Shown here one piece after another: positions 834-1,525 of a stretch of DNA of 2,241 bases. Origin of the DNA: Escherichia coli (lineage in GTDB: Bacteria; Pseudomonadota; Gammaproteobacteria; Enterobacterales; Enterobacteriaceae); the NCBI RefSeq assembly GCF_003334815.1, contig NZ_QOWO01000087.1. One strand, written 5' to 3'. A model generated the notes under the pieces. That model was not told the DNA's origin and made no database searches. It was given only the letters and a program-made list of their open reading frames with translations. Both the position numbers and the translations under genes were made by a program. Numbering within the stretch: position 1 is the stretch's first letter; the number at the start of each line of letters is the position of its first letter.

Positions 834-851
834 GAGGAGCGAAAGCTCCTC
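834..851. other. Hairpin with 7-bp stem and GAAA tetraloop (GAGGAGC-gaaa-GCTCCTC)
   Basis: Perfect complementarity 834-840/845-851 with loop 841-844. On the plus strand the loop is a GNRA-type sequence. Confidence 0.6.
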
Positions 852-856
852 CTGCC

Positions 857-890
857 GTCCACTTCACAGGGGTTTCTCCCCGCAGTGGAC
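857..890. other. Imperfect two-part hairpin (outer stem 857-863/884-890, inner stem GGGG 869-872 / CCCC 878-881, loop tttct)
   Basis: GTCCACT...AGTGGAC outer arms are perfectly complementary (7 bp); the inner GGGG/CCCC stem is separated from it by an internal loop. Confidence 0.5.
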
Positions 891-922
891 CTTTCCGATG
901 GGGGCCCGTTTACCGCCTCACG

Positions 923-934
923 GGACAGCTGTCC
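923..934. repeat. 12-bp perfect palindrome GGACAGCTGTCC (contains CAGCTG)
   Basis: The sequence equals its own reverse complement. A second CAGCTG-centred palindrome, GCAGCTGC, occurs at 1270-1277. Confidence 0.7.
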
Positions 935-939
935 GGGGG

Positions 940-987
940 CGGACGCAAAATTTTTAGCCGGGTTCATGGCTAAAAATTTTGTGGCCG
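940..987. repeat. Perfect 14-bp AT-rich inverted repeat (946-959 / 968-981) with 8-nt spacer, extendable imperfectly to 940-987
   Basis: CAAAATTTTTAGCC-gggttcat-GGCTAAAAATTTTG: every one of 14 positions pairs. Flanking 940-945/982-987 add four Watson-Crick pairs with one G-T and one mismatch. It is the only AT-rich perfect hairpin in an otherwise GC-rich region. Confidence 0.85.
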
Positions 988-1092
988 GTGCATCTCACCC
1001 TGGACAGATGGAACGGGAGGGGGTTACGTCTGCCCCCCGGAAAGTCCACAGCGGGAAACAGGCCGCAGGGGTGGCGGCAGGAGGGAAGACTG

Positions 1093-1134
1093 CTGCGCCA
1101 TCAGGCGCAGTTTCCTCACACACCGTCAGGTGTG
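1093..1134. other. Two adjacent tetraloop hairpins (CTGCGCC-atca-GGCGCAG at 1093-1110; CACACC-gtca-GGTGTG at 1119-1134)
   Basis: Perfect 7-bp and 6-bp stems confirmed by base pairing, separated by 8 nt. Confidence 0.6.
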
Positions 1135-1150
1135 CAGGGAGCGCAGGTCA

Positions 1151-1185
1151 CGGCGCGACAGGGGCGGCGCGACCGGAACGGTCGC
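1151..1185. repeat. Direct repeat CGGCGCGAC x2 (1151-1159, 1165-1173); the second copy overlaps a hairpin GCGACC-ggaac-GGTCGC (1169-1185)
   Basis: Exact 9-bp direct repeat with 5-bp spacer, read directly. The hairpin has a 6-bp perfect stem. Confidence 0.6.
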
Positions 1186-1358
1186 TGCAAGCCGGGTTTT
1201 CACGCATCGGACCGTAGCGGCAGCCCGAAACCGCGCCAGCGGGTTCGGCGGAGACTGGCGGGTGCGCCAGCAGCTGCCTGTCGGAGTCGGGCCTGACGAC
1301 CGGATGCCGCCAGGCAGCCGGGAGCCGAAGTGGGCGCAATAAAAGACAGCCAGAAACG

Positions 1359-1371
1359 GTGACAGTGTCAC
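1359..1371. repeat. 13-bp palindrome GTGACA-g-TGTCAC; candidate operator for a dimeric DNA-binding protein
   Basis: Six-bp arms are perfectly complementary around a central G. It lies in the only AT-richer patch (about 1331-1410) of the intergenic region. The operator role is inference. Confidence 0.45.
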
Positions 1372-1373
1372 GG

Positions 1374-1382
1374 AATATCACA
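1374..1382 (-). promoter_or_regulatory. Possible extended -10 element (TGtGATATT on the minus strand) for conventional transcription toward ssb
   Basis: Minus strand reads TG-t-GATATT. The hexamer keeps the A at -11 and T at -7 but has G at -12, and there is no good -35. A start site about 7 nt downstream would fall inside the 1359-1371 palindrome. Weak, by-eye call. Confidence 0.2.
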
Positions 1383-1434
1383 CCTGTTCCCTGCATACAG
1401 CCATACACTACCTTCTGACCGGAAAGCCGGGCCG

Positions 1435-1453
1435 GCAGCGCCGCAGGCGCTGC
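1435..1453. other. Hairpin with 8-bp GC stem and 3-nt loop (GCAGCGCC-gca-GGCGCTGC)
   Basis: Perfect pairing 1435-1442/1446-1453. Confidence 0.6.
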
Positions 1454-1466
1454 ACCCCGCATTTCC

Positions 1467-1525
1467 GGCAGGCGTCAGCCTGCCAGGGGTTTTCGCGCGG
1501 GCTGACAGGCGGCCTCCACCGCCTG
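1467..1525. other. Two GC-rich hairpins in the 3' untranslated region of the 63-aa ORF (1467-1484 GGCAGGC-gtca-GCCTGCC; 1506-1525 CAGGCGG-cctcca-CCGCCTG), the second nested inside CAGGGG (1484-1489) / CCCCTG (1526-1531)
   Basis: Perfect 7-bp stems confirmed by pairing. Neither is followed by a U-tract on the minus-strand RNA, so an intrinsic terminator is not supported. Confidence 0.5.

Follow-up and report, generated by a model that had tools for sequence, protein, structure and literature searches.

The window analyzed here, 2,241 nucleotides from an Escherichia coli contig (NZ_QOWO01000087.1), comes from the leading region of a conjugative plasmid of the IncI-gamma/I1 type. It matches more than 5000 plasmid records, most of them conjugative IncI and IncF plasmids. 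The element described below has ardA, psiA, psiB, ssb, klcA-like and MTase genes around it, and in the near-identical record NZ_CP024481 every one of these is on the - strand. The position of oriT, to the left together with traM or nikAB, identifies the + strand as the transferred strand (T-strand), and it serves as the template for the leading-region genes, all of which are on the - strand. Gene ssb, for the plasmid single-stranded-DNA-binding protein, occupies 237-764 on the - strand (ORF of 175 aa; annotated as SSB in NZ_CP024481) and is the first gene of the ssi3 operon, ssb-yfhA-psiB-psiA (PMC10104558). On the other side, a small - strand ORF of 63 aa (1534-1725; annotated WP_001027495) is the last gene of the upstream klcA-DUF1380 operon. 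The cassette that concerns us lies between that operon and ssb. The region is 63-70% G+C and is crowded with overlapping ORFs on both strands; RefSeq annotates one of these in NZ_CP024481 as a hypothetical protein of 104 aa (1148-1462, - strand), and the strand of the annotated ORFs differs from record to record.

Positions 831-1161 are identical at 329 of 331 bases (99.4%) to AJ238399.1:11381-11711, which is the ssi3 entry in Supplementary Table 2 of PMC11541004. This is the ColIb-P9 single-stranded-DNA (ssDNA) promoter ssi3 ("Frpo3"), read from the + strand, that is, with the T-strand as template. The class-1 assignment, together with 5' RACE and mapped transcription start sites, comes from the IncI1 plasmid pESBL (PMC12672017). 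Single-strand-dependent transcription and zygotic induction have been demonstrated both for Frpo1/2 of F (PMC9849209) and for ssi1-3 of pESBL (PMC12672017). The window shares with ColIb-P9 ssi3 (which is accompanied by ssi1 and ssi2) and with the pESBL class-1 promoters its sequence, its position immediately upstream of ssb, its strand and its large hairpin; the two base differences from ColIb-P9 are at 956, where the tip stem is perfect in the window, and at 1069. Homology, a leading-region position upstream of early genes and a long imperfect T-strand hairpin are among the marks of a class-1 ssDNA promoter, and these three are found here. We regard the element as almost certainly the ssi3 cassette.

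The main imperfect hairpin of ssi3 spans about 230 nt (851-1081, + strand) and ends in a tip stem at 944-983 with the loop GGGTTCAT; a hairpin scan picked up this tip as a 14-bp stem at 946-981. Folded as DNA, 830-1140 reaches -98.6 kcal/mol on the + strand (z -11.0) and -84.4 kcal/mol on the - strand, so that the + strand fold is the more stable by 14 kcal/mol. In an alifold analysis of 38 distinct copies, 6 pairs of the main hairpin show changes on both sides, and the main stem contains 204 G·T against 7 A·C on the + strand, from which we conclude that the + strand is the one that folds. Within the hairpin, the hexamer TGGACA at 1001-1006 (+ strand; a 5/6 match to TTGACA) lies in duplex stem, paired with 930-935, and is conserved in alignments of ColIb-, F- and Serratia-type elements. 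Judged by its sequence, it is a candidate -35 element; a second TGGAC is found on the left arm at 885-889. Both boxes are 17-18 nt from positions 1024-1033 (+ strand), the right side of an internal loop (904-911/1025-1033) that is predicted to be unpaired and may represent a pre-melted -10 region (TTACGT/TACGTC). A convincing -10 hexamer was not found; indeed, a linear sigma-70 consensus scan of the window returned no promoter, and a cross-family scan gave no consistent -35/-10 pair across six class-1 elements.

An earlier note on this DNA had singled out four small hairpins, each a perfect stem with a 4-nt loop, and all four are present exactly where it placed them. It also held that they were not random, and this was borne out. 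Among 5000 dinucleotide-preserving shuffles of 765-1533, perfect stems with 4-nt loops and a length of 6 bp or more averaged 0.28, against 5 observed (P = 2e-4), the fifth being a hairpin at 1255-1270 with the loop GGTG that emerged from the scan; for stems of at least 7 bp the corresponding numbers were 0.075 and 3 (P = 4e-4). The recurrence of the loops, for which the note had called for such a control, likewise exceeds chance, with 3 RTCA loops observed, a shuffle mean of 0.0016 and 0/5000 shuffles reaching the observed number. In isolation, the small hairpins fold as predicted, at -6.2 to -10.3 kcal/mol (z -3.3 to -5.3). Their energies on the two strands are nearly equal because the ViennaRNA DNA parameter set has neither special-loop terms nor a loop bonus, and the strand asymmetry of these hairpins therefore rests on the motif rule and published measurements considered below. 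The covariation that the note had proposed as a check is clear for the large hairpin and modest for the small stems, which are near-invariant within the ColIb-type family and for that reason give thin support of this kind: one compensatory pair in hairpin 1, and one compensatory variant of hairpin 2 in a distant copy.

Hairpins 1 to 3 form part of the published 331-nt ColIb-P9 ssi3 sequence, where they flank the promoter hairpin. Hairpin 1 (834-851, + strand; GAGGAGC-GAAA-GCTCCTC, 7 bp) adjoins the 5' base of the promoter hairpin and contains GCGAAAGC, a canonical mini-hairpin DNA. Its pair 838-847 is A:T in 27/38 copies and G:C in 11/38, the compensatory change mentioned above, and 35 copies have a GAAA loop against 17 with GAA, always within GCGAAAGC or GCGAAGC. 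Hairpin 2 (1093-1110, + strand; CTGCGCC-ATCA-GGCGCAG, 7 bp) starts 12 nt beyond the 3' base of the promoter hairpin and is the most invariant of the four: all ColIb-type copies have the ATCA loop, the five inner stem pairs do not vary, and one or two of 38 copies have mismatches at the two outer pairs. The compensatory variant, in L197, retains the loop (CAACGCC-ATCA-GGCGTTG). Hairpin 3 (1119-1134, + strand; CACACC-GTCA-GGTGTG, 6 bp) carries CCGTCAGG, a weaker CC/GG variant of the mini-hairpin, with GTCA loops in 48 copies and GTAA in 4; in other class-1 lineages (IncF, Klebsiella, Citrobacter) its position is taken by unrelated hairpins. Hairpin 4 (1467-1484, + strand; GGCAGGC-GTCA-GCCTGCC, 7 bp) carries GCGTCAGC, which fits GCGNNAGC. 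It lies about 300 nt from the published ssi3, just past the stop codon of the upstream operon, and a paralogous copy follows the ardA stop codon (L001, 3744-3761). Its loop in 60 copies is GTCA (32), GTAA (17), GCCA (6), GCA (3), GAAA (1) or ATCA (1).

Other hairpins accompany these four on the + strand. At 1141-1156, the imperfect hairpin GCGCAG-GTCA-CGGCGC provides a fourth loop of the RTCA type; its paralogues are perfect (GCGCCG-CATC/TTTC-CGGCGC), and the loop of IncF copies is GCCA. P0 (1167-1188; core GCGACCG-GAA-CGGTCGC at 1169-1185, 7 bp) is common to all class-1 elements, including the IncF Frpo copies. In P0 (helix 1 in A1), 6 of 7 pairs show changes on both sides, and the loop, closed by a G-C pair, is unconstrained to the point of GAA/TTC inversion. 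An extended hairpin at 1419-1468 has the cap CAGCGCC-GCA-GGCGCTG at 1435-1453 (8 bp), which was absent from the list in the earlier note and forms CCGCAGG, a GNA triloop with a C-G closing pair. Finally, a 7-bp hairpin with a 6-nt loop (1506-1525; CAGGCGG-CCTCCA-CCGCCTG) lies 9 nt past the stop codon of the upstream ORF.

The mini-hairpin DNA motif is GCGNNAGC or GCGNAGC, with CC/GG stems accepted as weaker versions, and it constrains only the first G and last A of the loop, which form a sheared G·A pair, and the C-G closing pair (PMC13037366). Exceptional resistance to heat and nucleases characterizes the DNA form, and RNA versions are far less stable. Melting temperatures are 76.5 C for GCGAAAGC and GCGAAGC, 71.5 C for GCGTAAGC and 65 C for CCGAAAGG (PMC13037366). 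Such hairpins are poorly bound by SSB, cause polymerase pausing, and are found in the G4, St-1 and alpha3 origins, RSF1010 ssiA and the N4 promoters (PMC13037366). In the window, hairpins 1, 3 and 4 and the hairpin at 1435-1453 are capped by GCGNNAGC, CCGNNAGG or CCGNAGG motifs, on the + strand only: hairpin 1 by GCGAAAGC, hairpin 3 by CCGTCAGG, hairpin 4 by GCGTCAGC and 1435-1453 by CCGCAGG. Compared with the mini-hairpin DNA of Hirao and colleagues, hairpin 1 and its paralogues, with GCGAAGC, provide both canonical sequences, a paralogue of hairpin 4 has GCGTAAGC, and hairpin 3 and 1435-1453 are CC/GG variants. The GTCA loop of GCGTCAGC is not among the measured 4-nt loops, which are GTAA, GTTA and single substitutions (PMC13037366). 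Moreover, mini-hairpin DNA stands alone, whereas here the motif caps stems of 6-8 bp, and hairpin 2, with its ATCA loop (GCCATCAGGC), falls outside the motif. For stems of at least 5 bp, the + to - strand ratio of mini-hairpin caps is 4:0 in the window, 11:2 in L001, 7:2 in L003 and 9:0 in L088, counts that include paralogous copies and hence events that are not independent.

The earlier note had read the shared loop as a repeated recognition unit, and the loop censuses do not support this. Among the GTCA, GTAA, GCCA, GAAA and GCA loops of hairpin 4, what 59 of the 60 copies retain is G...A and nothing more, as do all copies of hairpins 1 and 3, where the loops vary between GAAA and GAA and between GTCA and GTAA, respectively; neither the middle bases nor the length of the loop is fixed. 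Caps closed by C-G are constrained in this way, in contrast to P0, which is closed by G-C and has a free loop. Loop drift with a retained G...A, together with the unrelated replacements at the position of hairpin 3, is the signature of mini-hairpin DNA and not of a protein-binding word. The recurring loops are best explained by the physical chemistry of DNA, not by a shared recognition word. Hairpin 2, the only one with an invariant loop, could be sequence-specific.

Between P0 and hairpin 4 lies a multi-helix "cloverleaf" of about 135 nt (1203-1335, + strand), identified from alignment and covariation, which we call B1. Its helices are P1 (1203-1208/1330-1335), P2 (1209-1214/1288-1293), P4 (1225-1232/1241-1248), P5 (1253-1258/1277-1282) and P6 (1294-1307/1314-1327). 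In an alignment of 30 representatives of less than 93% identity, 21 of the 40 pairs show compensatory changes, and 96.5% of cells are paired, compared with 83.5% in shuffles (none of 500 as high as observed) and no more than 46% when the pairing partners are shifted; G·T outnumbers A·C by 61 to 12. B1 is always in the T-strand sense and adjoins a subset of the class-1 promoters, and its most frequent upstream neighbor is the small ORF found here at 1534-1725 (48 copies). In Rfam 15, neither B1 nor ssi had a family match in 8 loci; a scan of the window at E values up to 1 gave only two chance-level snoRNA matches (E of about 0.7-0.95), and none that fell on the hairpins, on ssi or on B1. No description of B1 turned up in full-text searches with blocks of its sequence or in the ssDNA-promoter papers. 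A different module follows IncF Frpo2/Frpo3. The B1 covariance model finds no match there, and we therefore claim no homology between the two modules.

In the ssi3 literature consulted, the published element stops at 1161, short of P0, B1 and hairpin 4, and we found the side hairpins and the chemistry of their loops discussed nowhere in it. The F plasmid has P0 as well, and B1 is also present next to Frpo1. The F Frpo element (ssiD; Frpo1/Frpo2 = ssp1a/ssp1b) is likewise a T-strand hairpin promoter upstream of ssb and ygeA, with about 77% identity to the window in the core (912-1007) and about 87% in the right block (1133-1200). The F-type flanks, in contrast, are unrelated in sequence: F has no homologues of hairpin 1 or hairpin 2, and at the position of hairpin 3 it has a different hairpin, CATCCCGGC-GGCCTTTT-GCCGGGATG. 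A more distant likeness is to complementary-strand origins (G4/St-1/alpha3 oric, the M13 minus-strand origin, RSF1010 ssiA/ssiB and rolling-circle ssoA), where stable hairpins are likewise clustered on a single strand that is entering or has been displaced, SSB is kept out and primase or RNA polymerase is brought in; mini-hairpin motifs occur in hairpin I of G4 and St-1 and in RSF1010 ssiA. By blastn of 1085-1540 against phage records, there is no sequence similarity to these origins, and the element here differs in mainly driving mRNA synthesis by sigma-70 RNA polymerase.

The small hairpins might act in RNA instead of DNA. Since the leading-region genes are all on the - strand, read-through would transcribe every one of the hairpins. 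Hairpin 1, which precedes the ssb start codon by about 70 nt and likely lies in the 5' UTR, would then be a stem-loop that stabilizes or regulates the ssb mRNA, and hairpin 4 with 1435-1453 and 1506-1525, possibly also hairpins 2 and 3, would be 3'-end stabilizers or terminators of the klcA-DUF1380 operon; 9 nt separate the stop codon of the upstream ORF from the group formed by hairpin 4 and its neighbors, and the paralogue is similarly placed after that of ardA. However, intrinsic (Rho-independent) termination was rejected, as none of the hairpins has a U-tract on the - strand and the terminator scan was blank at all four. The loops in the RNA sense (UUUC, UGAC and UGAU) are not stable RNA tetraloops, the G...A rule applies to the + strand only, and the RNA version r(GCGAAAGC) melts at 39 C, compared with 76.5 C for the DNA (PMC13037366). 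Moreover, the large neighboring structures have far more G·T than A·C on the + strand, and would therefore contain C·A mismatches if folded as - strand RNA. An RNA-level role is, on this evidence, unlikely.

We give a slightly lower probability still to the idea that the RTCA loops are a sequence-specific ssDNA recognition unit, bound by host DnaG (as a G4-type signal), the IncI Sog primase, PriA or another hairpin binder. The excess of RTCA loops over shuffles speaks for it, as do the fourth GTCA loop at 1141-1156, the invariant GCC-ATCA-GGC of hairpin 2, which persists through the stem change in L197, the two CTG triplets ahead of that hairpin, further CC-ATCA-GG hairpins elsewhere in leading regions, and the mini-hairpins at the primase-dependent origins of G4, St-1, alpha3 and RSF1010 ssiA. 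Set against these are the drift of the loops in hairpins 3 and 4 and the unrelated loops, such as GGCCTTTT, AGTCCTTC and CCGG, at the hairpin-3 position of other lineages. As linear motifs, CGTCAG and CATCAG were discarded: CGTCAG has no strand bias in leading regions (19 vs 23 in L001), and for CATCAG the T-strand bias cannot be separated from the effect of coding sequence lying on the - strand. A G4- or phiX174-type priming signal recognizable by similarity was rejected too, since blastn of 1085-1540 against 50,697 phage records gave no match. The reading that the hairpins arose by chance, as palindromes of GC-rich non-coding DNA, or came about as by-products of the 104-aa ORF (1148-1462) would suit the base composition and the abundance of overlapping ORFs on both strands, one of them annotated. 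Nevertheless, shuffles (P <=2e-4) and the conservation of the hairpins over paralogues and plasmid families refute a chance origin, and for the ORF, homologue indels are not multiples of three, RNA-like covariation runs across it, and different records annotate ORFs on different strands; we consider these explanations extremely improbable. A scan of genome contigs with CGACCGNNNCGGTCGCWGCAA returned mostly chance matches in GC-rich genomes and about 12 relevant loci.

The hairpins belong to an already known element, the ssi3/Frpo-type promoter, and the suggestion in the earlier note that they act on single-stranded DNA fits this placement. Its proposal of a single-strand initiation signal holds for the region, which is an ssi sequence, and fails for the four small hairpins: the signal is the hairpin at 851-1081, which three of them flank and which that note did not contain. 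We think it probable that the hairpins are accessory stem-loops of a composite T-strand ssDNA control cassette with ssi3 as its core, and somewhat more cautiously favor a part for them as structural elements of that cassette in its single-stranded state. By the mechanism that the literature has shown for F Frpo, ColIb-P9 and pESBL, the promoter would work as follows. As the T-strand enters the recipient, 851-1081 would fold into the imperfect hairpin, which would mimic a duplex sigma-70 promoter, and host RNA polymerase would transcribe leftward into ssb-yfhA-psiB-psiA. The RNA from ssi3 may also prime complementary-strand synthesis, and conversion to duplex would erase the hairpin and switch the promoter off. 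Along the cassette, the order is hairpin 1, the promoter hairpin, hairpins 2 and 3, P0, B1, and hairpin 4 with its neighbors at the upstream stop codon. We infer that the mini-hairpin caps could snap these side-arms shut on strand entry, and that the closed arms might keep SSB off, set the register in which the big hairpin folds and shield that hairpin from the GC-rich sequence on either side. They might also delay the polymerase that makes the complementary strand as it comes in from the right, which would keep the promoter single-stranded for longer. In F, the stem-loop of an ssDNA promoter is a replication roadblock (bioRxiv 10.64898/2026.01.09.698686), although that promoter is class-2 (ssp2) and the cassette here class-1. 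Any single sub-role for the small hairpins, be it fold nucleation, SSB exclusion or roadblock, is doubtful when taken by itself.

More tentatively, and with somewhat less than even confidence, we propose that leading-region ssDNA promoters are larger cassettes than they have been drawn, with hyperstable T-strand mini-hairpin caps (GCGNNAGC and related) and, beside a subset of the class-1 promoters, with B1 as a dedicated ssDNA device. B1 could be a site for priming or primosome loading, a roadblock to polymerase or helicase that times duplex conversion, or a landing pad for a protein.

For the four hairpins, the finding is mainly an explanation, in that they belong to the textbook-adjacent ssi3/Frpo element, through which the SSB, SOS inhibitor and anti-restriction genes of resistance plasmids are expressed within minutes of entry. 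The restriction of the mini-hairpin rule to the T-strand offers a simple sequence signature for a strand that functions as ssDNA, and the rule specifies precise loop mutations (G to T, A to C) for probing whether fold nucleation, SSB exclusion or polymerase stalling tunes zygotic induction. B1 is a conserved, well-supported structure beside the promoter and a concrete deletion target for work on plasmid establishment; if the proposal made for it is true, it would join the few conserved structures with covariation that work at the level of DNA.

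The window almost certainly carries the ssi3 cassette ('Frpo3'), the class-1 single-stranded DNA (ssDNA) promoter upstream of ssb in ColIb-P9. Positions 831-1161 differ at only 2 of 331 positions from the ColIb-P9 Frpo3 reference (AJ238399.1:11381-11711) in Supplementary Table 2 of Samuel et al. (PMC11541004). Thus, of the four small stem-loops described in an earlier note, hairpins 1, 2 and 3 lie within a published, functionally characterised element; hairpin 4 lies outside it. One of the two differences, A for T at position 956, replaces a T·T mismatch of the tip stem with an A-T pair and makes the window tip a perfect 14 bp. 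In IncI-gamma plasmids, the ssb-yfhA-psiB-psiA operon is driven by the ssi3 promoter (PMC10104558). Together, ssi1-3 and F Frpo1/2 constitute the 'class 1' ssDNA promoters, and 5' RACE in the IncI1 plasmid pESBL has located the transcription start sites of ssi1-3 (PMC12672017).

More than 5000 plasmid records have a match to the interval, the majority conjugative and from Escherichia, Klebsiella or Salmonella. The top match, an IncI-gamma/K1 plasmid, places the window between ssb and a small DUF1380 ORF, and the surrounding gene run (ardA, psiA, psiB, ssb, klcA-like antirestriction, DNA methylase) is entirely on the - strand. Once IncF and IncI records are oriented like the window, oriT is on the left, beside traM or nikA-nikB. 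Read 5' to 3', the + strand (the strand given) therefore leads from nic into the leading region and is the transferred strand (T-strand), the template for all these genes. IncF/IncI leading-region sequence with 97-100% identity to the window also occurs in assemblies that carry the names Streptomyces, Oscillibacter, Collinsella and Erysipelotrichaceae (L021 and L022, Streptomyces morookaense; L006, L012, L039 and L050, Firmicutes/Actinobacteria MAGs), most likely through contamination or mis-binning.

All four hairpins are present on the + strand exactly where the earlier note placed them: hairpin 1 at 834-851 (GAGGAGC-GAAA-GCTCCTC), hairpin 2 at 1093-1110 (CTGCGCC-ATCA-GGCGCAG), hairpin 3 at 1119-1134 (CACACC-GTCA-GGTGTG) and hairpin 4 at 1467-1484 (GGCAGGC-GTCA-GCCTGCC). 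Besides these four, a scan of 765-1533 found a fifth perfect stem of 6 bp or more with a 4-nt loop, at 1255-1270, and further hairpins at 946-981 (14 bp), 1169-1185, 1435-1453 and 1506-1525. The dinucleotide-preserving shuffle proposed in that note puts both the stem count and the loop recurrence beyond chance: 5000 shuffles of 765-1533 gave a mean of 0.28 such stems (P = 2e-4 for five or more), and none contained three RTCA loops (mean 0.0016). The 765-1540 fold is also far better than those of its own shuffles on both strands (z = -7.7 and -6.5).

When 38 distinct ColIb-type copies, drawn from plasmids, genomes and metagenomes, are aligned, a single structure dominates: a long imperfect hairpin (851-1081) whose tip stem lies at 944-983. 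Six of its pairs change Watson-Crick type, there are 204 G·T cells against 7 A·C cells, and the + strand fold is more stable than the - strand fold by 14 kcal/mol. The G·T excess and the more stable fold identify + as the folding strand, as expected for Frpo. Hairpin 1 adjoins the 5' base of the large hairpin. Past its 3' base come a 12-nt gap, hairpins 2 and 3, an imperfect + strand hairpin at 1141-1156 (GCGCAG-GTCA-CGGCGC) and then the hairpin P0 (core 1169-1185, +). All IncF Frpo copies share P0 and the block 1133-1200 with the window at about 87% identity, and the core 912-1007 at about 77%. A -35-like TGGACA at 1001-1006 lies within duplex and is kept across families; a second TGGAC box is on the left arm (885-889), and both are 17-18 nt from one internal loop (904-911 / 1025-1033). 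As candidates, these motifs would place the promoter boxes in the 851-1081 hairpin; scans of the window and of class-1 elements assigned neither a -10 hexamer nor a direction from sequence alone. Competing pairings are also available in the window (848-857 with 1075-1084; 1474-1483 with 1497-1506). Matches to Rfam AS-pc01 ('antisense to pHK01_035') in three comparison loci (L003 11379-11480 (+), L047 6295-6391, L171 2089-2185) fall at the start of a ygeA-like gene directly downstream of IncF Frpo1, so a known antisense RNA adjoins another class-1 cassette.

Among ColIb-type copies, hairpin 1 occurs in three forms: that of the window, GGAGGGGC-GAAA-GCCCCTTC, with a compensatory A:T to G:C change (11/38 copies), and GGAGGAGC-GAA-GCTCCTTC. 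Hairpin 2 has an ATCA loop in all of them, and only its two outer pairs are ever broken, in one or two of 38 copies; in the distant hybrid element L197 (CAACGCC-ATCA-GGCGTTG), two stem positions are altered with compensation and the loop is unchanged. The stem of hairpin 3 is constant, with a GTCA (48 copies) or GTAA (4) loop. IncF-, Klebsiella- and Citrobacter-type cassettes have unrelated hairpins at that position (CATCCCGGC-GGCCTTTT-GCCGGGATG; GTGCCGGC-AGTCCTTC-GCCGGCAC; ATCCCGTCG-CCGG-CGACGGGAT). Hairpin 4 keeps its stem while its loop varies (GTCA 32, GTAA 17, GCCA 6, GCA 3, GAAA 1, ATCA 1).

In the variable loops, only the first G and the last A are constant, and the closing pair is C-G, which matches the rule for mini-hairpin DNA (GCGNNAGC / GCGNAGC), a motif that Kimoto and Hirao have reviewed (PMC13037366). 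According to that review, GCGAAAGC and GCGAAGC, through two G-C pairs and a sheared G·A pair, reach a Tm of 76.5 C; GCGTAAGC melts at 71.5 C, CCGAAAGG at 65 C and the RNA version at only 39 C. Mini-hairpins bind SSB poorly, cause polymerase pausing, and occur in the G4, St-1 and alpha3 complementary-strand origins, RSF1010 ssiA and the N4 virion-polymerase promoters (PMC13037366). The motif is GCGAAAGC in hairpin 1 (GCGAAGC in paralogues), CCGTCAGG in hairpin 3, GCGTCAGC in hairpin 4 (GCGTAAGC in a paralogue) and CCGCAGG in the 1435-1453 hairpin. On stems of at least 5 bp, such motifs are distributed 4:0 between the + and - strands in the window, 11:2 in L001, 7:2 in L003 and 9:0 in L088. In contrast, P0 has a G-C closing pair, outside the rule, and its loops are free, of many kinds including a GAA/TTC inversion. 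Hairpin 2 is an exception to the rule. Taken together, the loop rule, the strand counts and the free P0 loops indicate that the recurrence is best explained if hyperstable DNA hairpins have been selected for on the transferred strand.

Several related features were noted. The 3-nt P0 loop is GAA in most copies and the exact inverse, TTC, in 12 (GCGACCG-TTC-CGGTCGC), as if flipped by intrastrand template switching (window 1169-1185, L003 3252-3270, L197). In the oriT region of IncI, GCGAAGC caps a 6-bp T-strand stem between nikA and the gene that follows it (L088 about 4120-4135), and GCGAAAGC caps a 5-bp T-strand stem upstream of an M.EcoGIX-like methylase gene (L001 16590, L003 18597, L088 13580), the site of a reported class-3 ssDNA promoter. 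Other perfect C-ATCA-G hairpins, outside the rule like hairpin 2, recur in leading regions (L001 15577-15592, L003 17583-17598 and other loci), for example TGCCTCC-ATCA-GGAGGCG (11 copies) and TACACAC-ATCA-GTGTGTC (7 copies). A + strand direct repeat, GGGTTTTC(A/G)CGC, at 1194-1205 and 1487-1498, lies 8-10 nt past the P0 stem and 2 nt past that of hairpin 4, in a layout like a hairpin plus T-run.

The side hairpins are conserved, strand-specific and of DNA type. Chance palindromes or a coding by-product are excluded by the shuffle tests, by this conservation and by homologues with frame-breaking indels. The RefSeq 104-aa 'hypothetical protein' WP_001434357 (1148-1462, -), which spans P0, the B1 structure described below and the spacer, is probably spurious: its homologues have such indels and structural covariation, and in other records the annotated ORF is another one, on the opposite strand. 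Three observations disfavour a role in RNA, whether as a 5'-UTR hairpin or as stabilisers of a 3' end beyond the upstream stop codon: U-tracts are absent, the loop rule is strand-specific and G·T is in excess on the + strand. Also disfavoured is a primase signal or a recognition unit specific for the RTCA sequence, which survives mainly for hairpin 2: loops drift, replacement is lineage-specific, and blastn of 1085-1540 against 50,697 phage records revealed no similarity to phage origins. The earlier note's ssDNA-signal reading is partly right: the hairpins are probably ssDNA structures of the ssi3 cassette, and a shared RTCA word is disfavoured by the drifting loops.

We consider it somewhat probable that the small hairpins are ssDNA structural elements of the ssi3 cassette; any single sub-role is tentative at best. 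A T-strand hairpin recruits sigma-70 RNA polymerase, and the promoter is silenced by conversion to duplex DNA (PMC9849209, PMC12672017). F ssp2, an ssDNA-promoter stem-loop, stalls complementary-strand synthesis until UvrD resolves it (bioRxiv 10.64898/2026.01.09.698686). The side hairpins would close at once on strand entry, resist SSB, and set the register of the 230-nt hairpin amid GC-rich competing pairings; they may also slow a polymerase coming from the right.

Between P0 and hairpin 4 lies B1 (1203-1335, +), a multi-helix 'cloverleaf' of roughly 135 nt. Scanning metagenomes with GCCCGAAACC-N(6-14)-TTCGGCGGAG yielded matches at no fewer than 120 loci, and 30 representatives below 93% identity were aligned from among the matches listed. 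These share the invariant blocks CATCRGAC, CTAGC, GCCCGAAACC, GGTTCGGCGGAG, GACGAC and GAGCCGAAGG, and the structure predicted by RNAalifold consists of three arms, a closing helix and a further long-range helix. In this structure, 21 of 40 pairs are changed on both sides, and 96.5% of cells are paired versus 83.5% in shuffles (0/500 reach the observed value); sliding the 3' partners by 1-3 columns leaves at most 46% paired. G·T cells number 61 versus 12 for A·C. Around 142 copies, all 508 of 508 matches to neighbouring leading-region genes are on the opposite strand; therefore, B1 is always in T-strand sense. Some, but not all, class-1 ssDNA promoters have B1 beside them: with a covariance model, B1 is detected once or twice per plasmid, each time adjoining such a promoter (further copies at L001 3503-3644 and 12436-12578, L002 9053-9194, and L052 5057-5194 and 7838-7974). 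Rfam gave no match to B1 in the window and eight related loci, and the literature searched held no description of it.

The window copy has a weakened closing helix (1330-1335 versus 1203-1208; C·C, G·G, T·T). Its sequence there is GCCGAAGTGGGCGC, whereas nearly every homologue has GCCGAAGG(G/T)G(G/T)CC, and it has lost the otherwise invariant CCGAAGG mini-hairpin motif at the end of B1. Group II introns (Rfam D1-D4 and domain V-VI matches; ltrA) are inserted at L003 about 12190-14532 (+) and L002 2742-4523 (-). One lies a few bases past a B1 3' end (GAGCCGAAGGTGCGC|GTGCGAC), in T-strand sense, and another upstream of ssb in an IncF plasmid; the structured ssDNA regions of these cassettes may be group II intron homing sites.

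The recurrent hairpins are a correct observation of the side-arms of an already known element, so the novelty of the finding itself is low. Only the mini-hairpin reading and B1, both undescribed as far as we have checked, may be of specialist interest.
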